Below, in pieces: positions 1-52,030 of a stretch of 64,000 nucleotides of DNA (the stretch's first letter is position 1; each line of letters starts with the position of its first letter). Source of the stretch: Cyanidioschyzon merolae (Eukaryota); the NCBI GenBank assembly GCA_000091205.1, contig AP006501.2, one strand, 5' to 3'. Below the pieces are notes generated by a model, which worked only from the letters and a program-made list of their open reading frames with translations, was not told the origin of the DNA and did not search any database. The translations under genes and the position numbers were made by a program.

Positions 1-816
1 TGGCTGAACAGGATGCCGGTCGTCGATCCGGTGGATACGCTTGCCCGCTAGCCGAGTCCAGATCCGAGTGAACGATTTCGTTTGCAACTGGAGACCGCCT
101 TGCACTGCATTCATGCTGTGACAGTGAAGATTCCGGGATTCCGTAACTGCGCTCGATCGCAGTGATGTTGCAGCTCGCGGCAAAAGACGTCTAGCGACAC
201 CACCACGGACGCACGCTCACGAATATCGATGCTGAAAGAGCAGCTGTGGTTCCATGTCGGTTTTTCGGAAGAGTTCAAATATGGCAGGCGACGAGCGTTG
301 CCAGCGTTGGATACCCTAGAGAGAACGACAACAGGGAAGCATACGAGTCTAGCGTACCGCGAACGAATATCAAGTCCGTCCCTGGCCTATCCACTATTGC
401 GCAGATGGACGTGGGCACCAGATCGTTACACCCGTGAGCAAATACTTCTCCATGTCGTTGTCTGTAAAGCCTGCGCCTTATAATTCTATCAAGAACCATG
501 AAAAGACATACGCGAAGAAATCAAGCCTTACAAAGGGCCGCAAAACATCAACGCCATCTGTGTCGTCGCAAAGCACCTACGCAGAAACCCGTCATGGCCA
601 TAGCACGATCCTGTGGCACCGAGACTTGGCATCCATTGTTATGTGAAGGCAGATATTCCATGAATTCTACCAGACCCATGTCAGAGGAACATGGAACGTG
701 TCTACTCTGCTGACTCGGGCGTACAATCGAAAGTTTGGGACTCTTTTTAATGCCATCAGCACCAATATTCGCCGAATTTTGCGTGACTGCTTCTTTTTGT
801 GTTTCATGTCCCGATT

Positions 817-2050
817 TAGATACGCAGGTGTCTCTCGTGTACCGCCAGATCCATTGCCAACAGTCGAAAGATGATGTACGCTTTCAAGTCCTGATTCCGC
901 TGCTTCCGGCTGCCGTTCATGGAGTACGAGGACCAGGGAAGACAACGATTTTCGCATTGCTTTTCATCTTTCATCTCGCTTGTATTCACCCTCGGTGCGC
1001 CGCTCACAACCGTGACACATGACTGAGGTCAGCAGTTCCTCTGCTGCACAACACGCTCTCCTCCGAATGCCGCCCTGGAGCGCGTGAACGCCTCGTTCAT
1101 CGCTCGCGAGATGCCCATGGCGAGCACAGAAGGCCACCCGCGTTGCCGTCCTCTGTTTCAGCACCCAGTACGGTACCCTGTGATCACGGGCTTCTTCGGG
1201 ATGATCCCCAGTGTACCTGGTGTGTTTGCGGTACGCGCAAGCACATGCTGTCGCCGTCAATAGATGGTGTGCGGAACCCGCTCATGCCCCCGAGGGATCA
1301 CGTGCCGGAAGGCGAATCGGGCCCGGAGACCCGATCGAGCGGGTGTCGCAACGTCGACGCTCCCTTCGTGCAAGGCGGTGACGTGTGATCGGTTGGATGC
1401 ATCCGGTACAACGAATCAAGTCCGAACTCCAGACTCTTTTCCGTACAAGTAGATTAGCGGGAAGCCTCTGAGAGCCGATGCCCTGAGAGCTATCACGCTT
1501 CTGTCGAGATCCGTTTTGTCGCTGAGTTCACAGAGACTAGGACTTGCGTTTCGAACGGAATCGTTGATTAGATGTGATTTGTTCAGGAAACGCTCGGAAT
1601 GCACTTGTGCACACATCGTCAGGGCACGACGTCGCGCTCGTTCCCCAGTGCATCCAGCGCCGCGCATTGCCGCGCCCACGAGTTGATTCAGAACTGAGAG
1701 AAGATCGAAAACGTGCACGAACGCGTGAGCCTCTCATGCAGCATGTGAGGAATGGAGAAGAACAGAGGCTTTCGCGTACGAGCTGGATGACGACACTGGT
1801 TATTTTACGAATCGCTATTCGATGAAGTTGCGAAATATCTTGAGTTCCAGTGACTCGACGAATTCCAGTAGCAATGGTTCGAGGTCATTTTGCGGAAAAA
1901 CGGCGACTGGGAACGCTAAACTTACGCATGAGTCCGTAAGCCCTGCTTGCTCTACGTCGAATATCGATGCTGTTCATCTAGAACAAGTTCGGAAAACAAT
2001 CCCCAGGCAGAAAGAGGTCACCCATTCAAGTGTTCTTTCCGAATGGAACA
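817..2050 (+). repeat. Copy 1 of a ~1.23-kb direct repeat, ~99% identical to 6011-7245
   Basis: Base-for-base alignment of 817-2050 with 6011-7245 shows only ~10-12 substitutions. Identity starts abruptly at TTTAGATACGCAGGTG and ends near GGTCACCCATTCA. Weaker similarity continues upstream (735-817 vs 5928-6011). No recognisable protein homology inside. Confidence 0.9.
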
Positions 2051-2434
2051 CGATTGTATGCTCTGCGCAGCGTTGCTGCAGCCGTTTGCTGTACGCGCCA
2101 GTCGTACCTGCATATAGCCGCATGGCATTGCGCTGGATGCGCCGCTTCAGCGCACAGCGTCTGTTGCGCAGATCGCCAGCTGCGGCGACACAGCGAGATG
2201 CGGGGCGCGCACTCAGGCCGATACCTGCGTCGCTGTGGTACCCGTTGAACGAGGAGCATGTTTATCAGTTCGACGCCCTGTGTACGAGGCTCTGTGAGGA
2301 GTTTGAGTGTGCATTCACTTTCGAGACAGCTAGGTACCCGGTATTTCGTGCAAAGCAAGCACCAATCCCGTGTACGGCTTCGCACTTGCGTTATCCCCAC
2401 TGGTCCCGGCTCACTCCAGCGGACGGTGTGGTGT

Positions 2435-2562
2435 ATGGAGCTCCAGGTGGGAGACGCGGCACCTGATTTTCAGATGCCGACTGACCAGGGCGGTCAAGTT
2501 TCACTGAAAGACTTTCGGGGGCGTCCAGTGGTACTCTACTTTTATCCGAAAGCCAATACACC
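2435..2562 (+). CDS. Peroxiredoxin Q / bacterioferritin comigratory protein (BCP), exon 1
   Basis: Translation MELQVGDAAPDFQMPTDQGGQVSLKDFRGRPVVLYFYPKANTP matches the BCP/PrxQ N-terminus. The conserved PGCT motif is split: exon 1 ends ...aca cc, followed by a gtaagt donor at 2563. Confidence 0.85.
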
Positions 2563-2678
2563 GTAAGTTGACGTGCAAACTGCTTGACGACGCTTGGCAC
2601 CAGAACCAGAGACTAACCGCAAGGGAGCACTTGGCTAGGGCTGCTTTTGCAGCACCGGGCTGGTACGCGAAATCGCAG

Positions 2679-3027
2679 TGGTTGTACGACACAGGCTTGT
2701 GACTTGCGTGACAATATCGAGGACCTCAATAAAGTGGATGCCGTGGTTATCGGAGTTTCGCGTGACCCTGTCGCTGACTTAGCCAAGTTTCGGAAAGATC
2801 ATGGCCTCAACTTCTACCTCGCGTCCGATGCAGACGGATCCGTCACGGAAGCTTACGGAGTGTGGAAGTTGCGTAAGATGATGGGTCGCGAGTTCATGGG
2901 TATTGAACGCAGTACATTCATCATTCAGGACGGCGTGATTCGCAAACTGTGGCGCGGCGTGAAGGCCCCAGAGCATATCGCGTGGGTAAAGCGCTCGTTA
3001 GAAGAAATGAAAGCAGGTGCGAAGTAG
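2679..3027 (+). CDS. Peroxiredoxin Q / BCP, exon 2, after a 116-bp GT-AG intron (2563-2678)
   Basis: The acceptor ...aatcgcag|t restores cct-ggt-tgt = P-G-C, giving TPGCTTQACDLRDN...VVIGVSRD...LNFYLASD...STFIIQDG in frame and ending at tag 3025-3027. This is a close match to E. coli BCP and plant PrxQ. Confidence 0.85.
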
Positions 3028-3849
3028 ATCGTCTTATGTGGAACGGTTGGGTTGCAAATAGCTTCCGAACGGCTTTGTGACATGCGTACGTTGTTCACGG
3101 TGCGCGGGAACATGTCATCGCGATGGTCGACGATTTCGATGCCGACGGCGGAAGGTGCGGTCCCTGCTCCACTTTACCGGTGACCGCCATGGCCGGGGCT
3201 ATGCGGAAACGCGTGTGAGCGCACTGCAGTGGTCTGTTGGAGCATTTTACGGACGTGTTGCTGCATTGCAAGCGACAAAAGTAAAAAGGAATGCGAATTT
3301 CTCCGAGGAACTTACCTTTCTTCATGCAATGGGTCCCGTTCTGCTGTGAGACTCGTTTCCTCGTGCTAGAGGCAGATGCTTGGAAACAGGAGTTTTGTTG
3401 GATCAGCGCACAGCGCCTATTCATAGGATATGCTTCGTCTGGACACCCCTTGCGTTTCCGGAATCAATGAGAACGACTGTCCACATGATACAGCTGCTCA
3501 TCATCGGCGCCAGGTTCTTGTAAGCCCCAGGAAAATCACCGTCCCAGCTCACGGGCTTGCCCCGGCATGCCAAGTCGTCGTGTGAACCGCAGCGCAGCGC
3601 TCCGATCGGCAATCGAAAGCGCAGCAGTGCTGGTGCTTACCGTGGCGCGGCGCGCGCGTTGTGCCGCAGCAGCGGATAGCGCTCAGTCTCTAATGTGGTA
3701 CATATCAGAACAAAGAGGAACGGGTGACTTCAAACTGCTCGTTGCTCGCGACATCCGGAAACAGCTTTGGCGTCGCCAGCGCTACAGCTGCAGCTGTTTC
3801 TGTGAGCTCGACGCAGCCGCCAGTCTCGCTCATAAGTGCTTCGTCGTCA

Positions 3850-5256
3850 ATGTGCGAGCGACGAAGCTCATGTGTGCGGGTGCTGCCCCGAAGGCTTCTC
3901 GTTTTGCTCTGGTGCTTCGTGTACCTATGTGACGCACTGCAGCCCGCAGAGAGTGAAAAAGTTGATTCCAAGGCACTTTTCGACCAGGTTGGAACGACAC
4001 TTGTGTCTATAGAGCGGGTTCAACGCAATCACTTACGCACAGAGTACGGCTCTGTGCTGCAGCACTGCAAGGTGACCCTAAAGACGCTGGATAACTTTTG
4101 CAGGCGATCGTATGTAGCTTGTAACCAGACGCGCACGTGTGCGGAGCAATTAGAACCTTGGAAGGCCCGCGTTCATGATTTAAGCGTGAACCTAGAACGG
4201 CTGACAAGCGAGAGAATTCGCGAGCGCGAAGCTCACGCGGTTCGCGTGCGCGAGCTCGAGGCGAAACTTTCCGCAGCGCGCCAGACAACCGTCAATAGTA
4301 TCGATGAACAGCGCTTGATGCGAACAAGCGGCACCGCTGCTCTGTTCGGCAACAAATGGATGCCCACGGTCGGCAATAGGCTCCATTTGCCAGCCGTGCT
4401 GCTCCTCGTCAGCTTCGGCTACCTGCTATGCGTATTTGTAGGAAGGGCATCGTCGTGGCTTCGTTACCAGAGATCCTGTGCTGTTGTTGGTCATTTCCGA
4501 GCACGAAACAGTACCCGCTTCGACGCTGCGTTTCGCTGGGTTCGAGCCGTGGATTTGTTGTGTGCGGGCCTTTTTTTGATGGCCGTGTTCTTCCCAGGAC
4601 CGATCGCGCGAACGATGATGGAGTCTGAACGATCCTTGCCGCTGTGGAGCTCCCTGTGCTACTGGGCACAATGCATCGCATGCGTATCCGGAACGTCTTT
4701 GAATGCATTCGTCTTATTTTCCGTGTTTTGGAGGGCACGATCTGTTGGGGCACTTTCAGCCTTCATTTCTCTCTGTCTCGTTCGGAGCATTCACCTTGTT
4801 GCATCTGTCAGTGTCTTATACCATTCCAGCTTCCACTGGCGCATGCCAGCGACGACCGGTCTCTTCAATACCACCGTTGAAGCAGCACATTCGTATGACA
4901 TGATGACGCATCGCTTGCGGATCTACTTTCTCACGTATGGTTTCATTTTCATGTTGATGGCGTGGGACACGCACCAGCAACTCACCGATCATGCACCGCT
5001 CAGAGCAGCAGTGCTCACTGTCGAACGTGTACGTCGACTTTCGAAGAGCCGTCGGCCACGAGCCGCCCCCGAGAAAGCGTTATGCTATCGATCCCTTGTA
5101 TCTAGTCCCAGAAGAGGCATGCAGCCATCCCTGGAGTCAGGGTCGTCCAGATCATTTTCAACTCTTGAGTCTGGCGACTGGAAGACGCCGCCCTTGCGCC
5201 GCGTCGTTGCTGAAAAGCGAACTTGCGCGCGAACGGTTGTAAGTACACCAGACTGA
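3850..5256 (+). CDS. Hypothetical multi-pass membrane protein with a signal-peptide-like N-terminus
   Basis: Long ORF (3724-5256) with several hydrophobic helices and an N-terminal RRLLVLLWCFVYLCDALQP segment after the Met at 3850. I recognise no family. The coding call rests on ORF length only. Confidence 0.3.
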   Translation: MCERRSSCVRVLPRRLLVLLWCFVYLCDALQPAESEKVDSKALFDQVGTTLVSIERVQRNHLRTEYGSVLQHCKVTLKTLDNFCRRSYVACNQTRTCAEQLEPWKARVHDLSVNLERLTSERIREREAHAVRVRELEAKLSAARQTTVNSIDEQRLMRTSGTAALFGNKWMPTVGNRLHLPAVLLLVSFGYLLCVFVGRASSWLRYQRSCAVVGHFRARNSTRFDAAFRWVRAVDLLCAGLFLMAVFFPGPIARTMMESERSLPLWSSLCYWAQCIACVSGTSLNAFVLFSVFWRARSVGALSAFISLCLVRSIHLVASVSVLYHSSFHWRMPATTGLFNTTVEAAHSYDMMTHRLRIYFLTYGFIFMLMAWDTHQQLTDHAPLRAAVLTVERVRRLSKSRRPRAAPEKALCYRSLVSSPRRGMQPSLESGSSRSFSTLESGDWKTPPLRRVVAEKRTCARTVVSTPD

Positions 5257-6010
5257 ACCCGCCATAACATTGGACATTGTCAGTCATGTACAACGCTGAA
5301 ATGAGGCGCCAGATGTGCATGGAGTCCGCAAACAACATCTGATAGCGCTCGGGACGCTTAACAAGAGTCAGCGACCAGGAAATCATCCTAGTTCTTGATC
5401 ATTTCAAAACATTTGTCAACGAAACCGGGTCCTGCACGCTGGTTATTTTTCGCGCGAGGCTGTACTCGCTCCATGTACTGTTCCGTTGCAGCGTCACGAA
5501 TGCGGAATTTTCACGAGCGAATCTGAACAGTCTCTGTGCGATACACGGCTTTCAGTTAACCAGCGAGCTCTGTCCGTGCACTGCGCTTGCTCTACGCTTC
5601 ACGGACTGCGCAGTCGGCCAACTGCCGCCGGTGTGCGTTCAAACTTTGGGTGAACAGCGCAAGCGACCAGCGTATCAGGCATAGTGCTGAAGTCAAACTG
5701 AACGACGCAACGCTCTGTAACTGAGAATCAGCTCCGCCGATTCAGGGAGATGCACCCAAAGAAACGGTGAAAACAACGTAAAGAATCGAAGGGCTCTCAG
5801 ACCGACGTGGCGTTGGTACGCACTGGCTTGATGAAGCGCTCGTAACAGTAATCGAATGCAGTTACACGAGTGCCAGACTACAAGGAAAACAGTTCCGCTT
5901 AGCTAACTCGGGTGTACGAGCGAAAGCTTGCGCTGTTTCCAACTGTCATCAGCGTCAGCCTTGCGAGCTTTCTCTGCGACCGCTTCCTTTGCCTCTCTTG
6001 TATCTGCGGC

Positions 6011-7245
6011 TTTAGATACGCAGGTGTCTCTCGTGTACCGCCAGATCCATTGCCAACAGTCGAAAGATGATGTACGCTTTCAAGTCCTGATTCCGCTGCT
6101 TCCGGCTGCCGTTCATGGAGTACGAGGACCAGGGAAGACAACGATTTTCGCATTGCTTTTCATCTTTCATCTCGCTTGTATTCACCCTCGGTGCGCCGCT
6201 CACAACCGTGACACATGACTGAGGTCAGCAGTTCCTCTGCTGCACAACACGCTCTCCTCCGAATGCCGCCCTGGAGCGCGTGAACGCCTCGTTCATCGCT
6301 CGCGAGATGCCCATGGCGAGCACAGAAGGCCACCCGCGTTGCCGTCCTCTGTTTCAGCACCCAGTACGGTGCCCTGTGATCACGGGCTTCTTCGGGATGA
6401 TCCCCAGTGTACCTGGTGTTTTTGCGGTACGCGCAAGCACATGCTGTCGCCGTCAATAGATGGTGTGCGGAACCCGCTCATGCCCCCGAGGGATCACGTG
6501 CCGGAAGGCGAATCGCGCCCGGAGACCCGATCGAGCGGGTGTCGCAACGTCGACGCTCCCTTCGTGCAAGGCGGTGACGTGTGATCGGTTGGATGCATCC
6601 GGTACAACGAATCAAGTCCGAACTCCAGACTCTTTTCCGTACAAGTAGATTAGCGGGAAGCCTCTGAGAGCCGATGCCCTGAGAGCCATCACGCTTCTGT
6701 CGAGATCCGTTTTGTCGCTGAGTTCACAGAGACTAGGACTTGCGTTTCGAACGGAATCGTTGATTAGATGTGATTTGTTCAGGAAACGCTCGGAATGCAC
6801 TTGTGCACACATCGCTAGGGCACGACGTCGCGCTCGTTCCCCAGTGCATCCAGCGCCGCGCATTGCCGCGCCCACGAGTTGATTCAGAACTGAGAGAAGA
6901 TCGAAAACGTGCACGAACGCGTGAGCCTCTCATGCAGCATGTGAGGAATGGAGAAGAACAGAGGCTTTCGCGTACGAGCTGGATGACGACACTGGTTATT
7001 TTACGAATCGCTATTCGATGAAGTTGCGAAATATCTTGATTTCCAGTGACTCGACGAATTCCAGTAGCAATGGTTCGAGGTCATTTTGCGGAAAAACGGC
7101 GACTAGGAACGCTAAACTTACGTATGAGTCCGTAAGCCCTGCTCGCTCTACGTCGAATATCGATGCTGTTCATCTAGAACAAGTTCGGAAAACAATCCCC
7201 AGGCAGAAAGAGGTCACCCATTCATGTGCTCTTTCGGAATGGAAT
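6011..7245 (+). repeat. Copy 2 of the ~1.23-kb direct repeat, ending ~55 bp upstream of the ETF-beta start codon
   Basis: See copy 1. Copy 2 diverges from copy 1 after ~7245. Confidence 0.9.
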
Positions 7246-7300
7246 CCAATCGGATGGGTGGCACGGCCGCGCTGCTGCTTTTCCAAAGAACAGACAACAT

Positions 7301-7777
7301 ATGCCTCCCCCCTGCTTCAGGGTTCTAGTTGGCGTGAAAAGAGTTGTTGATTATGCAGTCAAAGTTAGGATCACACCAGATCACAGTGGAGTGGATACCG
7401 CGAACCTTAAAACCTCCATGAACCCGTTCTGTGAACTCGCTGTTGAGGCTGCAGTGCAGCTGCGCGAACGCCTCGGTCCGGAGCGCGTGCCCGAAATCGT
7501 CGCTGCCAGTGTGGGCCCCACAGCGTGCCAGGAGACCCTGCGGACAGCGCTTGCCATGGGAGTCGATCGTGCCGTACTCGTGAACACCGACGCAGCACCA
7601 GTGTCCGACTCCAAAGCGGGTAGCGCGCTGCAGCCGGAGCCGTTAGATGTTGCGCGGACGCTGGCGGCGCTTCAGTCGCGACTCCAGTCGAACTTGATTC
7701 TGCTTGGGAAGCAAGCTATTGATGACGATTCGAACCAGACAGGCCAACTGCTGGCTGGAATTTTGAACTGGTCACAA
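7301..7777 (+). CDS. ETFB: Electron transfer flavoprotein beta subunit (ETFB), exon 1
   Basis: MPPPCFRVLVGVKRVVDYAVKVRITPD...SMNPFCELAVEAAVQLRE...CQETLRTALAMGVDRAVLV...LLGKQAIDDDSNQTGQLLAGILNWSQ aligns along its length with human ETFB. Exon ends caa|gtaagt at 7777/7778. Confidence 0.85.
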
Positions 7778-8022
7778 GTAAGTGAAGCTCGATGAGCACC
7801 AGGTTGACGCCTCTGCGCCTCAGATGATGAACGCATCAGCCGCTTTTCACGACGGTCTACTGAGTTGAGAACGATGCGGATAAAGGCTTGCATCGTAGAG
7901 ATGCTCTGATGAGGCGCACAGATAATCGATCTACGACGGGGCAACTGTCGCGGCGATGAGACGCTTGGCAGCGATGAGAACCTAGATAACTAACCACGGC
8001 ATGCAACGACGCTGATACCCAG

Positions 8023-8367
8023 GGAACTTTTCTCTCCAAGATCGAGGCCGAAAAAGAGCAAGATTTGCTGCAAGTCGACCGTGAAGTTGATGAAGGAATT
8101 GAACGGCTCCGGCTTCGACTGCCGAGTGTACTGACTTGCGACTTGCGCCTGAACAAACCACGATACATAACGTTGCCGAACCTGATGCGAGCGAAAACGA
8201 AACCGATTGAAACGCTCAGTACGAGCGACCTCGGCGTTGCGTTGCGAACGTACTGGCAAATTGTTCGCGTCGACGAACCACCCGCTCGCCGTCAAGTCAC
8301 GATGCTCAAAACTGTCGATGAGCTGGTGGCGAAACTCCAGCAACTAGGCGTTTTGGACCGCGCTTGA
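8023..8367 (+). CDS. ETFB: ETFB exon 2, after a 245-bp GT-AG intron (7778-8022)
   Basis: Acceptor cccag|ggaact. Translation GTFLSKIEAEKEQDLLQVDREVDEGIERLRLRLPSVLTCDLRLNKPRYITLPNLMRAKTKPIE...VDELVAKLQQLGVL matches the ETFB C-terminus ([20 protein letters not shown]). Stop tga at 8365-8367. Confidence 0.85.
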   Translation, partial: GTFLSKIEAEKEQDLLQVDREVDEGIERLRLRLPSVLTCDLRLNKPRYITLPNLMRAKTKPIETLSTSDLGVALRTYWQIVRVDEPPARRQVTMLKTVDELVAKLQQLGVLDRA

Positions 8368-10074
8368 TGTACTATCACAGATGTATCCGGTCATGTTGAT
8401 GCTGAGGACGTCACCGAAAAACGTGCATACGTGCGTGCGTTCGTGTGTGAAACCGAGCGAGACATTGCATGCATAGCGGCTGCAGAGTCGTTCGTGATGC
8501 ACATGGAGGCTGGTATCTGATACACTTCATTCCAGCCGACAATGATGTCGGGATATCATATCCGCAACGCGGCGAATCGATATCCGGAGGCTTGTGCGGT
8601 TGCTGATGCAGAGCGCGCTCTTGTGTGCATGAGGTGCACTTCAGGATCCAGTGTTTTTCATGCTGGTATGCTGTACCAACGATGGGGACCATTGGAGTTC
8701 ATGAAAATGATAGACCTCTACCAACGGCTTCGTTGCCGCACTGCTCCGTATTCCAGGACATTTCGGGCGGTTTTGGCAGTGTCGAAAGAGGATACATTAT
8801 CTGGCGCTGTCTTGTGGGCTTGTTTACGGGGCAGAGCAGCATCGGACAGCGACTGCTTGGAAACATATTTGCCTCACATGGCATGCTGCATCGATGAGCA
8901 TGCGTTTCGGCTCTCGCTCAATCTAGCTCAGAGCGCTTGCCGCCCTCGCTAGGAGCGTGCGGTACCGTACGCGAGGTTGACCCGTCTCGCCGCGCAATCA
9001 GCTAGCGAGACACGGCTTCCGCATGGCACCGGGGAAATCCCTACAGCTACCATTGTTACAGCTGCCTCTTCAGTTCATTTACGACGAACGCAATTTCCGC
9101 TGGAACGGTGCAAACATTCGCACATGCAGGCTTACTGGACACGTGCTTTGGAATGTGTCCACACGCCCCGGGGCGAGCATTCCGTCGACACAGACGCATC
9201 GCTTCTCGCTACCCGGCGAGCTGTGCTGCTCGCGTTAATCTCCAAAGATTCTGAAGCGTGTCCAATCGAAAGCAGGCCATGTTTGTCACCCGCCAATGAC
9301 GCCGTGCAGCGAAAGCGCCGTAGATTCAGCACCCAACCTCGAGATGCAGCGCACGTCCCGAACGACCCCAACTCCTTGTCGCAGAAGACTCCGAGGATGC
9401 ACCTGTTTCCCAACTTATTCTAACTTACACCAAACTCTGAGCCTAAATACCGACTTTCGGGGAGTCTCCGACACCACTCTGGCGCAGCGAAGACGCGCTC
9501 ACCTGGATTGATCTCCGGGAAACCTGCGTTCCACAAATCAACATCTCTACGCAGTCAGTTCTTCTCTATCCCGTTCCAAGTCTCCGAGATCCTAGCGCGT
9601 CCCTGAGTCCGCCAGACTATAGATATGAGAAAAATGCTGCGTTTTGGAAGCGATTTCTCAGAACTTAGGACCCCAAGTCCTGAATATGAGCACGCGTCGT
9701 CGCAAGAAGCAAAGTTGAGACAAAGCGTCCACGAACTGTACGCAAGCGTTTCGTGCCACCCGCTGCAGCAGCTACCCAACTTTATCCCGCCAGCTGCTAA
9801 AAAACACTTGCCTCATTCACCCTACAAGCGTCCTGTTTCGAACACGGCTCGAAGACAAGGCTCCTCGGATAGAACTATCAGCTCCATACCGTGGGCGTGT
9901 TCGCGGTGGGGCAGACGGCGCCCGGTGCACCGAACCTGCGTCCGCGAACATTCGCGCTCGGCATCCGGTACCCGAATCCGAAACCGCTTTCCTCCTCGCT
10001 GTCGTTCTACAACGCGTTCAGAGCGATTGACGCGAACGTCTTCGATATTTTTGGGACTATTCAGGTACCAGCGT

Positions 10075-15700: not shown

Positions 15701-16890
15701 ACTCAAACAAGCGGGTGGTTATTGAAAGCCGGATCTTTGAGATAAGAAACCGAAGCTGGCGTGGAAATCCGCCTCAAAGGCTGGTGTTGACGGCAATTGC
15801 AAGACATCCAAACGTTGTTATGCACGCTCACATTGGGGGGGGGGACCTATTCCTTGCTACTCAGATGCATTTTTGTTGTGGACGCCCAAGTCAGCAAAGG
15901 GGACTCTTTCCATTTTATTCTGACGTGGAAATAGGTTTGGGTGAGCGAATAACGCGCCGAAAGTCGATATTAATCGCGTACCCAGGTCAGTCTGGCTCGG
16001 TGCATCGTTTCTAAACCGCAAAACCAGGACCACACACCTGTGGTATCCGGGGGAAGCTGCTAGTGCCGCAAATCATTTACACCGCATAGAATTCGCCGGG
16101 CAGTCTGATACGTATGTTTCAGGGCCAGAGCAGGGGCTCTTCTGTGCCGAAGGCTTCACGGACATTACCTAACGAGACGCGAGCATACCACCCAGACACG
16201 TCCATGAAACCCATTCGACACGTAATGCGTGGATACCTGTCCCAGTTTGATTCACCCCCGCATGCACAGCATGCAATACGGAGCTGGTATCCGCAAACCG
16301 CATCCTCGAAAGCTTCTTCTTCTTCGTTGTCCTATTCACTTGTGAAAGTTATACAAAAGCGACCCGAATACTCCAACGCCTTGTTCTTCAAACGAAGGTG
16401 CAGCTCTCTTGTCCCGTGCTACGATCCGGTAAAGACGGATATCGCTCGAATCCGATGCAGCGACTGCAGGCGCCCGCGTTAGGAGTGCGCTCTCTCCATG
16501 GGACCAGCGTAAACGCAGCATCATCTTGAGGAGCATCGCACACTGGGTGCGTAAAGCGCGGGATACTGCAGATTGCCGCTGGTGCGAATCCAAGCCAATC
16601 TGGGCAATGATACGTGGTCTACGAATTCAAGTCAGGATGGAGCATGCTTCATGTGTGCTGCTCCCGAAAAGTCGCTTTTCTAACGCGGTCACTCGGTGCA
16701 CCTCGTCCTGCAAATCGGTGAAGCGACCCAGCGGCATCATTCCTCACAACCCTCTGGTCCTAACTTGATTCATTTGGAATCAGCGATACCATCGCCAGTG
16801 ACGCGCAACAAGCGCTTACACGTTCTACCGGCAATACGAGCAGCGAGCAGCTCTTCCGCGCTGCTACGTTTCACGTGCTAATTACCGCTC

Positions 16891-22733: not shown

Positions 22734-24757
22734 CAATGAGCTCCGCTTCCGATGTAAACGTTATCCATAAAAACTTACAGAGTAAAGCCTCAAGTGTGCT
22801 GAAAGGTTGAATACGACCTCACTTTCACTTAAAGTAGGATCAAACCCGCAGCACCGGTGCGCAACTTGTCAAAAATTGTCGAGCTCCGGGAACTCACCAC
22901 GGCTCTGTTACAGTGAGCAAGATGCGTCCGTGCGTCCAACAAGAGACTCGTGGTCAAGTTGTTTATCCGATCGAGTAACGAAGACACGCTCGGGCGAAAG
23001 AAAGCGCTTCAAGAAGAGGCTGTGTATTCGGGATATTACAATTGGTGTACACCGTTTTGAAGGGGCATGCGCGATACCGATACCCATACAGCGCGATACA
23101 GCGATGACGAGAACCTGGTGCGTCGCTGAAGCTAAAGTTTGGGCCTCTTCAGAGCTGTTCACTAGTGCTGCTTGCTTGCACTATGGGGCATGCGTCAGCG
23201 AGACATGAGCAACTGCTAGGCGGGAGCGCGCTGAACGACGACCGCCATAGACGCTTTACGGTTCGTGCACTTCCCAGCTTGTCTTACGCTCATGCGAGAC
23301 TATGAAGGGATGGGTCCAGCAACTCGGATACACACTCTAAAGTTGGTATCTCTTGCTATTATCGTCAAGACAAGGCTTCTCGGGGTTTTCTGAGACAACA
23401 TCTTTTTCATCTTCCTTACCTTTCGGTGTATATTCTCCAGTGTACCTTTTTTTTTGCAGATCCGTTCATAGCAGTCGAGAGACACTGCTAGTACTCTGAA
23501 AGTCCCAATATCGCTGGTTTCGGATGCCGTTCTCGCACCCTAGGCATAGAATGTCGTTGCGATCTACACGCTGCATGCGAGAGTCATCGCCTTCGCATAC
23601 AGACAGAGTGTACCACGCTCAGCGGTGACACGTCGCGGTACTCAGGGATTCCCGTATACCCACAATGCATCCCGTTCCGAAGCGGCGCCCTGTGCCGCGT
23701 GAGCACTTCCTTCGCCGTTCCGTGCATGTTGTTGACTGGTAAAGAAGGCTTCTGTCGATGCCTTCCTCCATTCCTGTGCCCGGTGACATGCACGATGATC
23801 ACGGGCCCCTTCTGGACGATTCCCGCGGCGAGTACGCTACCCGCTGGGCACGCAAGCGCACGCTGCTCCATGCGGTAGCGCAGCCATGGAATGCAGTATT
23901 GCCCGTGATGAAACAAGCACCTGAATGGAACTCCAGAATCGGGATCCAGGCGAGAAATCCAGGACGATCCACGCTGCCTTCGTATGCGGCCGTGACGCGC
24001 TCATTAGTGGAACCGGTTGCGGCGATGACTGCAGCCCTCGTCCAGGACGCTATTCCATGCAAGCGGAATGCACAGAAGCTTCTGGGACCATACTTCGTGA
24101 TGGGCAATGCTTGTGTCGGATCTCGGTTCGACGATAGCCACGGAGAGCGGCGGCTTTGTTTTTTCCAAATGGAACAGGCTTCCTGACGTAAGCGGTTCCA
24201 TGAACTCGCCGCATGAGCCTGTGAATACGTCGCCAGCGGACATCGTCGCGTATTTTGTTTCCTCGTCAATCCAGAGATCCGCATTGCTGCGTCCACGAGT
24301 TGCCTGAAACAGACACATCGAACACCTTGAAGAATGCGTGATTGACGCAGAGGCCAGGCAAGCAATCGAGAGGAATCGAGGCGACTGCACATGCGTGGAT
24401 GGTGGTATTGTTTTAATGCTGCGAAACCCGTGATCGACGGCGCTGGAACTCATCATGATTCCGGTGGTGAAATCGAATTGCAGCGTCAGGGAATCGAAGG
24501 AGCCTCCACGGAAACACGACCGAAAATATAAAATTCCGCATGCATCCCCAAGCTCTTGTTGCTCTACCTTGAACGTTGATGCAGCCCAAGCAAAAAAGAT
24601 CGAAAAATATCGAAAGATAGGCGCAAAGCGAGTCATTCCATGTTCCATTATAATCTGACATGAGTGTAGGCAGGCACTGGTGTTCAGGTACGCTCCTCCG
24701 AATTTTATTCTGAACGCTCCGGCTCTGGCTACCTATACGGATCACGTTTTCGATGAG

Positions 24758-34270: not shown

Positions 34271-35342
34271 CTACAGCATCGCACATTGTCTGATATTAAG
34301 AGCGGCGTTAACGTCTCGGTTCACGAACTCACTGCGTTTCTTGCCGCCGCTTGTACTCAGGATCGCGAGGATTCCTAGTACTCGTGCCCAGTGTGCCACA
34401 ACAGTGTCGTCATCGGCCCGCCGGGCGAGCGCTTTTTCTCTTCTATTTTCCCTGTTCTTCTTCGTCATTTGCTCTATTTCGATTGATGGTCGGCGAATAT
34501 GGTATTGATCGTTCACTCCCGGCAGCGGGTACTGGCGGCCCCGAAGGATACCCGACTTGAATGTCCATATCTTTATTTTTTTAAAATCGAACCCAGTTTG
34601 AGCGCGTATGCTATAAACCGCGAAAAATCGCCTGAATAGACTTCCGTGAGGGTTGAAATACGATTGAGACGAAAGACTATACTTTGCTATGACTTCAACG
34701 CAAATGGACCGCCTACGTTACAGCCACACGCTAATGATCAGGATCGCGTTTCCCTTCAACGGCGATAGACGCATCGTATCTCATGCCTCCCAGATATGGA
34801 GGCTGGCGTATCGACCGAACTATCTAGAACGAGGAACGGAGACTAGGCACTACATGGCAACTCGATAACAATTTCGATCCTCGCTACGATAAGCGCTAAA
34901 ACGGGAAATCGTTTCCGAAGTGTCGAAAGTCTACCTCACAGGCGGCAGGTCCCGCGAGCCGGACGTCTCTCCCGGGCTGGTGCTTCATGCTCCCCCAGTG
35001 CCCGGTGCTGTTGCGAGGCCTGAGCAAATCGCCCGCAATGCACTTGATCCTGGGACCAGGAGCGCGTAAACTGCATCTAGGCGTCGGCTTGGTCGCCGAA
35101 GTATCCCAGTATATCGCTGCGCGCTCCACAGGCGGGACGTCTGTCTGCGCAGCTTGCAGACTCCCCGAATGCTTGTGTTCTCCGATGCCGTGCGGAACGG
35201 ACCACGCCTCGAATCGATCCACTATGTAGTCTGGCAATGCCGTTCTGTCTCTATGCTGCATCTGCATCGCCGTTAAGGGTGCCAAGGCAAGTGCTCTAGG
35301 TACGCAAAGCCCCCGATAGAACGCACAAAACGACCGGTACAT
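34271..35342 (-). mobile_element. TnpB/Fanzor-like degenerate copy B'
   Basis: The N-terminus MYRSFCAFYRGL (G..RFV-like) sits at 35342 and the C-terminal FVNRDVNAALNIRQC (RuvC-III RDxNAAxNI) at ~34288-34330. The interior is interrupted by stops in all frames. The 5' third is ~88% identical at DNA level to 63880-63945 (copy F). Confidence 0.5.
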
Positions 35343-35368
35343 CCGAGAGGAACTCTATATGATGGTAC

Positions 35369-36406
35369 ATGGTAGTATTGCGCAGCATGATGGAAACTTG
35401 GTCGTTTACGGGTACCCATCGATCACGCAAGCTGGGACCCATGGTCAATATAAGCGACTTTTATCATCCGGAAATCGTCAAGCGTTGCGGTCGGTGCGCA
35501 GATGCGTTGCACTGCGACACGCCCAGAGGCCGGTGCGTTCCAGGCTCCGCCCGAGTGCTGCTGCTTGCTTGTCTGTTTCTTCTCTCGTACTTCATGGATC
35601 AAGTGAATAGTTCTAACTCACTAACAATTGCAATAGTTGGTTTCGGCAACTTCGGACAGTTTTTGGCGAAAGCGTTTGTTCAGGCCGGTCACCGGGTGAT
35701 CGGACATTCGCGCACCAACTACGAAGCGATTGCGAGGCAGCTCGGTTGCGGTTTCGAAACCAGTGCGGATGCGCTGATGGACCTCCATAATCCTGACATT
35801 GTCGTGTTATCGACTTCGATACTCTCAACCGAAGAGGTCCTGCGCCGATTCCCGACAGCGAAGCTTCGGAGCTGCCTCGTTGTCGACGTGCTGAGCGTCA
35901 AGGTGTATGCACGGGAGCTCATGCTACGCTACGCACCTGAAGAGGCTGATATTTTGGCGACGCATCCCATGTTTGGTCCAGAGTCAGGACGTGGTTCATG
36001 GCGGGGCTTACCATTTGTCTTTGAGCGCACGCGAGTTCGTCAGCACGAGCGTTGCGAGGCCTTTCTATCTATCTTTCGGGAGCGTGGTTGCACGCTCATC
36101 GAGATGCCATGTCAAGAACATGATCACTATGCGGCGAGTACACAATTCATCACCCATACGACAGGTCGCATGTTGGCCGAGCTCAAAATTGCCTCCACAC
36201 CAATCAACACCCGCGGCTTTGAAGCACTGTTGGCGGTTGTAGAGACGACGGTGCGGGATTCTTTCGATCTCTATTACGGTTTGTACCGCTTTAATCCGAA
36301 TGCAAAGCAAGAGTTGGAGAAGATGCAGCGAGCACTCGAGCAAGTACGAGCCCAACTCGAAGCGTACGACCGCAAGTGTCGCGAGGCTGAAGCACGCTCA
36401 GCCTGA
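35369..36406 (+). CDS. Arogenate/prephenate dehydrogenase (TyrA), plant-type
   Basis: IAIVGFGNFGQFLAK...ILSTEEVL...VDVLSVK...THPMFGPESG...CEAFLSIFRERGCTLIEMPCQEHDHYAASTQFITHTTGRML...STPINTRGFEALL...DSFDLYYGLYRFNPNA is near-collinear with Arabidopsis arogenate dehydrogenase. The N-terminal ~75 aa (hydrophobic VLLLACLFLLSYF) may be a targeting sequence. An alternative start is ATG 35594. Confidence 0.8.
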   Translation: MVVLRSMMETWSFTGTHRSRKLGPMVNISDFYHPEIVKRCGRCADALHCDTPRGRCVPGSARVLLLACLFLLSYFMDQVNSSNSLTIAIVGFGNFGQFLAKAFVQAGHRVIGHSRTNYEAIARQLGCGFETSADALMDLHNPDIVVLSTSILSTEEVLRRFPTAKLRSCLVVDVLSVKVYARELMLRYAPEEADILATHPMFGPESGRGSWRGLPFVFERTRVRQHERCEAFLSIFRERGCTLIEMPCQEHDHYAASTQFITHTTGRMLAELKIASTPINTRGFEALLAVVETTVRDSFDLYYGLYRFNPNAKQELEKMQRALEQVRAQLEAYDRKCREAEARSA

Positions 36407-45981: not shown

Positions 45982-46184
45982 ACTCGATAAAGAGCGTGCC
46001 ACTCGGCAACACACACTCGTTGCCGGGCCCGTGAGGAACAGCACCTTGCCGCACTGTCGCTAGGGATGCAGTTTCTAGATAACGTTTCCAGAGGGCAGCG
46101 ATGAGTCTCCGTGCGCGGATGCGCGTCCTCATCGCTTGAGCATCGTGATCGCCCGCCGTTGTACCACTGGCGATCATCCGCTGC

Positions 46185-47232
46185 GCGTACACGTATACCA
46201 GTGCGTGTCCATGGATGCTTTTCTACATGCATGCCTATACGTGTCCAATGGTATGTATCCATGTCCATGGGTGCTTTTCTACATGCACGCCTTTACGTGT
46301 CCAACGGTATGTGTCCGTGTCAATGGATGCTTTTCTACATGCATGCCTATACGTGTCCAATGGCATGTATCCGTGCCCATAGATGCTTTTCTACATGCAT
46401 GCCTATACGTGTCCAATGGCATGTATCCGTGCCCATGGATGCTTTTCTACATGCATGCCTATACGTGTCCAACGGTATGTGTCCGTGTCCATGGATGCTT
46501 TTCTACATGCATGCCTATACGTGTCCAATGGTATGTATCCGTGTCCATGGATGCTTTTCTACATGCACGCCTATATGTGTCTAATAATATGTGTCCGTGC
46601 CCATGGGTGCTTTTCTACATGCACGCCTATATGTGTCTAATAATATGTGTCCGTGCCCATGGGTGCTTTTCTACATGCATGCCTATACGTGTCCAATGGT
46701 ATGTATCCGTGTCCATGGGTGCTTTTCTACATGCACGCCTTTACGTGTCCAACGGTATGTGTCCGTGTCAATGGATGCTTTTCTACATGCACGCCTATAT
46801 GTGTCTAATAATATGTGTCCGTGCCCATGGGTGCTTTTCTACATGCACGCCTATATGTGTCTAATAATATGTGTCCGTGCCCATGGGTGCTTTTCTACAT
46901 GCATGCCTATACGTGTCCAATGGTATGTATCCGTGTCCATGGGTGCTTTTCTACATGCACGCCTTTACGTGTCCAACGGTATGTGTCCGTGTCAATGGAT
47001 GCTTTTCTACATGCACGCCTATATGTGTCTAATAATATGTGTCCGTGCCCATGGGTGCTTTTCTACATGCACGCCTTTACGTGTCCAATGGTATGTATCC
47101 GTGTCCATGGGTGCTTTTCTACATGCATGCCTATATGTGTCTAATAATATGTGTCCGTGCCCATGGGTGCTTTTCTACATGCATGCCTATACGTGTCTAA
47201 TAATATGTATCCGTGTCCATGGGTGCTTTTCG
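46185..47232. repeat. Minisatellite: 56-bp unit x ~19, each unit containing CCATGG, CATGCATGC (RY-like) and ACGTGT cores
   Basis: Unit CCATGGATGCTTTTCTACATGCATGCCTATACGTGTCCAATGGTATGTATCCGTGT repeated head-to-tail with point variants. The long Cys-rich ORFs across it (46136-47250) are repeat artefacts. Confidence 0.95.
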
Positions 47233-51747: not shown

Positions 51748-52030
51748 AGGAAGCAGAAGCAGAAGCAGCAGCAGGTTGAGCTAACGTTCATCAAGGCAAC
51801 TACACACTGATCTACCTTTGTTTGATGACTACGGCAGTAGAAATGTCGCCACTAGGAAGCAGTAGCAGGAGGTTGAGCTAACATTCAACAAGGCTACTAC
51901 AAACTGATCTATCTTTTTTAGATGACTACGGCGGCAGACAAGTCTCCACTAGGAAGCAGCAACAGGTCGAGCTAACGCCGATGAAAGCAACTACATGCAA
52001 TACCCTTGATAAGTGACGACTGCAACAGTT
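51748..52030. repeat. ~100-bp tandem repeat x ~2.8
   Basis: Units begin AGGAAGCAG(N)AGCAGG..GAGCTAAC.TTCA.CAAGGC.ACTACA.ACTGATCTA.C at 51748, 51854 and 51951. The repeat lies immediately 5' of the minus-strand gene ending at 51618. Confidence 0.8.

Follow-up and report, generated by a model that had tools for sequence, protein, structure and literature searches.

Copies of a probable fossil DNA transposon flanking the PrxQ gene of Cyanidioschyzon merolae carry the signature of ectopic gene conversion

Results

The window analysed here is a stretch of 64,000 nucleotides from the alga Cyanidioschyzon merolae (GenBank assembly GCA_000091205.1, contig AP006501.2). Near its left end, two almost identical repeats, R1 and R2, enclose the peroxiredoxin gene PrxQ and an open reading frame (ORF) of 510 codons. 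R1 is located between PrxQ and a MAPEG gene that lies left of the window, and R2 stands directly before ETFB, the gene for the electron-transfer flavoprotein beta subunit. An earlier note on this DNA had read the pair as a tandem segmental duplication with a core homogenised by gene conversion.

The best local alignment of the R1 and R2 cores was one ungapped block of 1234 bp, 815–2048 against 6011–7244, with 13 substitutions and 0 indels (98.95% identity), and the repeat finder concurred. This confirmed, to within two bases, the pair first described (817–2050 and 6011–7245, with ~10–12 substitutions). The copies are in direct orientation and 5196 bp (5.2 kb) apart. Self-BLAST of the window revealed no other dispersed pair above ~71% identity, and the R1/R2 identity is far beyond chance. 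Weak homology with small indels extended 5' of the core for 145 bp, back to 670 and 5865, at 58% identity; the ~80 bp of lower-identity upstream homology that had been noticed before is real and belongs to this longer segment. On the 3' side, 8 bp more of homology to the repeat family described below were present, up to 2056 and 7252. The ETFB ATG (7301) is 56 bp past the core end of copy 2 at 7244, and the conserved PrxQ ATG (2435) is 387 bp past the core end of copy 1 at 2048, so that the previously reported distances of 55 and ~385 bp hold.

As a full-length family copy, R1 occupies 670–2056 (1387 bp, with a transposase remnant on the minus strand). It was delimited by nhmmer with the family hidden Markov model (E=0), by end mapping and by its flanks, which have TA at 668–669 and at 2057–2058. 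It contains an unconverted 5' segment (670–814), which includes the 5' terminal inverted repeat (about 670–699) and is 58% identical to its R2 counterpart, and the homogenised tract, or copy 1 (815–2048). R2, also on the minus strand, occupies 5865–7252 according to nhmmer and end mapping, with TA at 5863–5864 and a 3' flank decayed to GA. Its unconverted 5' segment with its own terminal inverted repeat was placed at 5865–6010 by alignment to the family, and its homogenised tract, copy 2, at 6011–7244 by the ungapped alignment and by variant tables. The end of R2 is 48 bp from the ETFB ATG.

Comparison of copy 1 with the window by BLAST and tblastx showed weak, collinear similarity to four further intergenic locations, and nhmmer returned four further full-length copies (C15, C23, C33 and C41) with E-values from 1e-72 to 1e-78. 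With the family model, all six copies scored E=0, and a 60-bp fragment was found in addition. In total, the window carries six full-length copies of one 1.39-kb repeat family, all of them intergenic, representing ~8.3 kb or ~13% of its length; five measure 1383–1391 bp and one 1306 bp. Unrelated copies showed 55–58% global pairwise identity in a star-like pattern. Because tblastx scores were alike in all six frames, the similarity within the family is at the nucleotide level, and a conserved protein-coding gene family was rejected on the same ground. Judged from their sequences, all family copies in the window are dead, since no reading frame is intact and unrelated copies have diverged so far.

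In the family alignment, the near-identical tract shared by R1 and R2 began 145 bp inside the element and stopped 8 bp before the element end. Over the outer 5' 145 bp, the identity of R1 and R2 was 0.58 as compared to 0.39–0.62 for other pairs, whereas in the core it was 0.989 as compared to 0.55–0.585. Each of the two has its own old terminal repeat, its own flanks and a separate conserved spacer; the interior alone is common to both. On the 3' side, a fixed difference at 2040 was followed by divergence past 2048, still inside the element. A near-identical tract embedded in homologous, highly diverged element ends is the signature of homogenisation by non-allelic (ectopic) gene conversion.

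Other strains were compared by scanning a 28-mer from the core start against the Joint Genome Institute (JGI) metagenome collection, which gave six loci, and by a MAPEG protein look-up, which gave ten more contigs, for sixteen independent contigs. All six loci matched by the 28-mer (6/6) were R1 or R2 contexts, and no third flank was seen in that collection. Three contigs of 24–33 kb from different JGI samples (L009, L010, which equals L004+L006, and L012) contained both copies and the genes between them at 99.1–99.4% identity; L008 covered the two inner junctions and L002 the left junction of copy 2. Many other contigs broke off after 93–235 bp of core sequence, as assemblies would be expected to do at a repeat present in two copies. 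The arrangement is thus real, which answers the concern raised in the earlier note that the identity might be an artefact of assembly.

Within a contig, R1 and R2 differed at 1 (L009), 1 (L012) or 6 (L010) positions, and in the window at 13, while the same locus differed at 10–28 positions between strains. Derived variants were common to both copies within a strain. The haplotypes T-TC-G and C-CT-T (sites 1491, 1619–20 and 1844) each occurred at both loci, in different samples, and site 2040 was the sole difference fixed between the R1 and R2 loci in all strains. By the evidence of these assemblies, R1 and R2 evolve in concert across strains. The homogenisation by gene conversion that had been proposed is supported on two sides, by the position of the tract inside diverged homologous ends and by this concerted behaviour. 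Between-strain divergence was 0.8–1.8% in the cores, as compared to 0.2–1.2% for unique spacers and no more than 0.8% for coding DNA.

As a separate observation from L009, L010 and L012, the homogenised cores were about twice as diverged between strains as the surrounding unique intergenic DNA.

In two contigs, the left flank of R1 was joined through a single core to the ETFB side: L011 (European Nucleotide Archive ERZ27249350, MEGAHIT k141, 18.9 kb) and L007 (JGI Ga0209012, 5.0 kb). Positions 8302–18050 of L011 and 1–5012 of L007 corresponded to window 1–2048 joined to 7245 onward, without PrxQ and the gene for the 510-amino-acid protein. The flanks showed one mismatch each to the window, and the contigs came from different samples and different pipelines. 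L011 was unbranched through the repeat, with at least 8 kb on either side, while other k=141 contigs stopped exactly one k-mer into the core, which makes it more likely that a true deletion allele prevailed in the sample. From these assembled sequences, we infer that L011 and L007 probably represent real deletion alleles, chimeric assembly being the alternative.

A second pair with the same tract border involved C23 (23287–24666, minus strand, in the orientation of R1, flanked by TA at either end). The tract in C23 runs from 23424 to ~24620 and is near-identical to a family copy ~8 kb left of the window, which is 94.5–97.5% identical to C23, ~40 kb away and in inverted orientation. This copy could be read over its first ~350 bp, where all contigs end (L004 13169–13518; the first 70–200 bp of L009–L015). 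Its first 135–170 bp were as diverged as is usual for the family. Identity between C23 and this partner starts at 23424, and the family position matching R1 815 is 23427 in C23. The left border of the near-identical tract is thus at the same element position in both pairs, to within ~3 nt; it lies 145 bp in from the 5' end, with a polypyrimidine/polypurine tract just outside it. The right edge of the C23 tract, placed at ~24620 from k=141 and k=31 assembly breaks, is ~46 bp from the element end, as compared to 8–17 bp for R1/R2.

A family consensus of 1382 bp was built from five independent copies. The consensus termini CACCCGTGTCAGAGTAAGATGGAATGG and CACCCATGTCAGATTAAAATGGAACAC (reverse complement) are inverted repeats of 27 bp, with 21/27 positions matching. 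The score of this terminal inverted repeat was reached in 0/5000 shuffles; the best inverted match of the consensus 5' end lay exactly at the 3' terminus, and the next-best, an internal one, had 15/27 matches. The terminal inverted repeat was also seen in the single copies C23, C41 and R1. TA adjoins ~8/12 element ends (both ends of R1 and C23, the 5' end of R2, and the 3' ends of C33 and C41, C15 being ambiguous), and the ends without TA are decayed, as age would predict.

On its minus strand, the consensus has one long, nearly open, decayed frame of ~415–422 codons. In R1 and C23 this frame contains 4 stops in 422 codons, as compared to 8–19 in the other frames. The stitched consensus frame matched the NCBIfam profile transpos_IS630 (IS630 family transposase; E=1.6e-9, 37.7 bits), with query 49–236 aligned to 46–238 of 299 profile positions, and a second consensus gave E=1.7e-8 with the same profile. 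The consensus frame also matched Pfam DDE_3 (E=2.2e-6, 28.0 bits), and the other long consensus frames, which served as negative controls, matched no profile. The motifs IDKT and FIVDN resemble the first two catalytic aspartates, and a putative N-terminal helix-turn-helix region precedes the DDE_3/IS630-like core. The combination of size, inverted repeats, TA flanks and transposase type points to a decayed DNA transposon of the IS630/Tc1/mariner superfamily. The minus-strand ORF shared by the two copies, to which the earlier note had drawn attention, is not a gene; it is what remains, after decay, of the C-terminal end of the transposase frame.

The C-terminal 150 residues of the family contain two features untypical of Tc1/mariner, a zinc-ribbon-like CxxC...CxxC stretch and a basic tail. 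The consensus C-terminus gave a weak match to the TnpB/Cas12f zinc ribbon (Cas12f1-like TNB, E=0.008–0.04), which was not relied upon. CMe-1A, the Fanzor1-bearing 'WSV repeat' of C. merolae, is ~3–3.2 kb long, is present in 150–253 copies, has a TnpB-like ORF and has no terminal inverted repeats (PMC1955436; PMC3627910). The present family shares with it the character of an abundant, decayed, interspersed repeat of the same species and the weak zinc-ribbon match of the consensus, but differs in length (1.39 kb), in having inverted repeats and in having an IS630-type transposase as its best match. Identity with CMe-1A was rejected because of the 1.39-kb unit, the inverted repeats, the zinc-ribbon match being only weak, and the lack of RuvC similarity.

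PrxQ (AhpC/TSA peroxiredoxin; 2258–3027, plus strand) lies between R1 and R2 and was recognised by Pfam AhpC-TSA (E=3e-20) and by tblastx to Cyanidiococcus. Its conserved ATG is at 2435, and an in-frame ATG at 2258 is an alternative start. If translation began there, 2258–2434 would encode a Ser/Arg-rich N-terminal extension that is transit-peptide-like and could be one. A GT-AG intron of 116 nt (2563–2678) sets PrxQ apart from the mostly uninterrupted genes of the window; ~27 introns have been reported for the C. merolae genome. The 510-codon ORF (3724–5256, plus strand), also between R1 and R2, has no Pfam domain and is 38% identical to a hypothetical protein of Cyanidiococcus yangmingshanensis. 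ETFB (7301–8367, plus strand) lies directly 3' of R2 and was identified by Pfam ETF (E=1e-20) and by alignment to the Cyanidiococcus locus L001. With R2 stopping 48 bp before its start codon, the ETFB promoter must be largely within R2.

The gene order of L001 (epimerase, MAPEG, PrxQ, the homologue of the 510-codon ORF, ETFB, rotamase/rhodanese, a long ORF and P450) is the same as in C. merolae. No family copies were detected in this 21-kb syntenic Cyanidiococcus region, where the ORF-to-ETFB spacer is 533 bp as compared to 2044 bp in the window, and the ORF-to-P450 spacer is 846 bp as compared to 2935 bp. Metagenome contigs 99.1–99.5% identical to the window reach left of it, and the MAPEG found there is 100% identical to that of C. 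merolae 10D. As MAPEG sits ~250 bp left of the window start, a replacement of this gene by R1 was ruled out. In L001, the deposited model at 7534–9362 is a MAPEG-PrxQ fusion of 356 amino acids. In C. merolae, MAPEG and PrxQ are two genes with R1 in between, and the fusion model is probably an annotation error.

The remaining diverged copies, all on the plus strand and inverted relative to R1, are C15 (14493–15876; 55–56% identical to R1), C33 (32358–33743) and C41 (40372–41677; internal deletion of ~80 bp). A 60-bp duplicate of the family 5' end at 15873–15932 adjoins the 5' end of C15. A rule that the 3' element end always faces a gene start was considered. It was true for ~5/6 copies and fails at C41, which adjoins a plus-strand HEAT-repeat gene at the 3' end of that gene; as only three copies lie in informative tandem spacers, the rule was dropped. 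The window as a whole gave no match in Rfam and tRNA scans, and a known RNA gene was thereby rejected as the nature of the repeat.

Other repeats of the window include a tandem array at 46204–47231 (56-bp unit, 18.4 copies, 90% matches), which overlaps a plus-strand ORF at 46136–46864, and a short tandem array at 51762–51995 (97-bp unit, 2.5 copies, 79% matches). An inverted pair, 35040–35399 against 63995–63633 (~360 bp, 71% identity), is unrelated to the 1.39-kb family and could represent another repeat family or paralogous genes.

Discussion

We consider it likely that R1 and R2 are separate ancient insertions of a 1.39-kb IS630/Tc1/mariner-type transposon whose cores have been kept alike by gene conversion. 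Two ancient insertions would have produced R1 and R2 in the intergenic spacers of C. merolae, which this family fills. Standing in the same orientation 5.2 kb apart, the copies would keep exchanging a fixed internal domain of ~1.23 kb by ectopic gene conversion, with independent decay of the outermost 145 bp on one side and ~8–17 bp on the other. Since recombination cannot start between 56%-identical sequences, we infer that the exchange has been continuous since the copies were young and that the pair evolves as a single lineage. The same R1/R2 homology would permit a crossover that pops out 5196 bp carrying PrxQ and the gene for the 510-amino-acid protein. This mechanism is available in C. 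merolae, as direct-repeat pop-out by homologous recombination was shown, and used, experimentally in strain 10D (PMC13353863). The earlier note had predicted that unequal recombination could delete the PrxQ region; two independent contigs (L011 and L007) show that product, which probably bears the prediction out, with misassembly a possibility.

Several points weigh against this explanation. Both transposase scores are under the curated cut-offs (28.0 against 28.6 bits for DDE_3, and 37.7 against 100 bits for transpos_IS630), the third catalytic residue is not identifiable in the consensus, and a stop codon at consensus codon 262 is common to all copies. The profile matches were obtained with the consensus only, as frame-corrected single copies gave no transposase match in Pfam and NCBIfam. 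The consensus frame had no match at E<=0.01 among 5.8 billion proteins, and neither the consensus nor a six-row profile gave anything but noise when searched against the PDB. Continuous conversion alone explains neither the sharp left border nor its recurrence in the second pair. The cross-strain data are short-read metagenome assemblies, which may collapse or swap variants between repeat copies; the identity of R1 and R2 in L009 and L012 (one difference each) and the haplotype sharing could be partly artefactual, and the within-contig counts could be underestimates. Finally, the hybrid contigs L011 and L007 could be chimeras or misassemblies. With regard to the shared stop codon, the master copy that was amplified may already have been defective.

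Among other explanations, a recent tandem or segmental duplication, in which ~1.3 kb of upstream sequence was copied between genes and the identity reflects youth, agrees with direct copies 5196 bp apart, 98.9% identity and sharp borders. It is most improbable, as in both copies the homology goes on, in register, through another 145 bp of family sequence at 58% identity, their own terminal inverted repeats included, and the duplicate would have had to land exactly in register inside an existing family member. Moreover, four more old copies are present in the window, no unique sequence was duplicated alongside, and the variants shared by the copies across strains imply recurrent exchange and not one event. 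The tandem duplication proposed in the earlier note was therefore given up in favour of separate ancient insertions, each with its diverged 5' end, in a gene order that is kept in Cyanidiococcus, where the elements are absent; gene conversion and the risk of recombination, the other parts of that reading, were retained. Fresh insertion of a young, still-active transposon subfamily would account for the fact that R1 and R2 are highly identical along most of their length, the greater part of the 3' terminal repeat included, and for the second high-identity pair formed by C23 and the copy left of the window. We nevertheless regard it as highly unlikely, because the 5' 145 bp, terminal repeat included, are as diverged as in any two old copies and the core has stop codons and no intact frame. 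Furthermore, the core 28-mer was found only at the R1 and R2 loci in the metagenome collection, and the R core is as far from other copies (55–57%) as those are from each other.

The same data bear on the possibility that the core is kept by selection, as a promoter or regulatory module shared by PrxQ and ETFB or as a non-coding RNA gene. Both copies are directly upstream of a same-strand gene, and ETFB transcription must start in or beside R2, given the 48 bp that separate them. Between strains, however, the cores vary more (0.8–1.8%) than unique intergenic (0.2–1.2%) or coding DNA, and because they are unconserved, selection for function is not what keeps the copies alike. Selection by itself does not give the two copies derived variants in common, the rest of the family has been free to diverge down to 56% identity, and there is no Rfam match, which leaves a functional core with a very low probability. 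R1 and R2 also have the look of the long terminal repeats (LTRs) of one element, being 1.2-kb direct repeats 4 kb apart in a unit of 6.4 kb, and a published RepeatModeler run listed 1930 'LTR elements' averaging ~1.1 kb in C. merolae (PMC9812998, Supplementary Data 4). Automatic structure-based pipelines would probably score them as an LTR pair, and the two long direct repeats around a few kb recall an LTR retrotransposon or large retrotransposon derivative (LARD). The interior, by contrast, consists of syntenic host genes: the intron-containing PrxQ and a conserved ORF stand in the order found in Cyanidiococcus, which lacks these repeats. The elements have inverted termini and TA flanks instead of TG...CA ends with 4–6-bp duplications, the repeats are diverged at one end and not identical over their full length, and the finished-genome paper found no LTR retrotransposons (PMC1955436), so that an LTR origin is extremely improbable. 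A duplicated or collapsed contig join has nothing more in its favour than the near-identity itself, and we give it practically no credence, since the three 24–33 kb contigs from different JGI samples span both copies, others span single junctions, and the fixed difference at 2040 and the distinct flanks are seen in all assemblies.

The family that we take R1 and R2 to belong to resembles fossil IS630/Tc1/mariner (ITm) elements, such as the decayed mariner- and Tigger-type copies of animals and plants, in its length of ~1.4 kb, its ~27-bp terminal inverted repeats and the TA at its ends. It also has a single transposase-type frame, with a putative helix-turn-helix followed by a DDE_3/IS630-like core, and dead copies scattered in non-coding DNA. 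It differs from them in that the C. merolae family was placed by a five-copy consensus with sub-threshold profile scores. The finished C. merolae genome has eight class II elements with transposases resembling bacterial ones (PMC1955436), which is compatible with an IS630-like lineage.

Concerted evolution of dispersed repeat copies and deletion between them are known from the HERV15 proviruses that flank the human AZFa interval and from yeast Ty/delta elements. As in those cases, same-orientation copies of a mobile element flank unique genes, the conversion tracts are near-identical, and crossing-over would delete the interval. R1 and R2 differ in being smaller (1.2-kb repeats around a 5.2-kb interval), in residing in a haploid alga and in being partners that are otherwise 56% identical. 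They differ further in a tract border that is fixed and recurs in another pair. Possible reasons for the recurrent left border are a non-homology barrier together with an outer homology island too short to recombine, or a preferred break site. A bolder proposal, which we hold to be doubtful, is that the homogenised domain has a built-in, position-specific border, such that recombination is started or stopped at a particular site within the dead transposons. If so, the whole fossil family, in an alga that is haploid and proficient in recombination, would undergo concerted evolution in local pairs and give rise to structural polymorphism, a natural PrxQ deletion allele among it.

The identity of R1 and R2 is a feature of a known kind, explained by ordinary repeat biology, with a few unusual details; the candidate natural PrxQ deletion allele and the recurrent tract border go beyond routine. 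Repeat annotations of C. merolae are in conflict: 0.7% transposable elements without LTR elements in one source (PMC1955436), 12.7% 'LTR elements' in another, and class II elements only (Mutator, Helitron and unknown) in a third. De novo tallies are roughly 1750–1930 elements (PMC9812998 Supplementary Data 4; preprint 10.1101/2022.10.24.513474), and C. merolae spacers, ~2x the Cyanidiococcus length, have been attributed to repeat expansion (PMC9812998). The density of the 1.39-kb family in the window fits the doubled spacers and the tallies, and the family may be what the published surveys classify differently.

C. merolae is a model of an unusually simple genome, yet one 1.39-kb family makes up 13% of the window. 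If this density holds genome-wide, it would explain much of why the spacers are twice as long as in Cyanidiococcus. The family may be the principal repeat between the genes of C. merolae, whose genome is reputed to be almost free of transposons, and the present analysis provides evidence on its class. The results are relevant to strain comparisons, to the reading of short-read assemblies, which break at these tracts, and to the choice of intergenic sites for 'neutral' integration in this species, which is engineered by homologous recombination. The fossil copies are not inert: they exchange sequence and probably delete intervening genes in natural populations.

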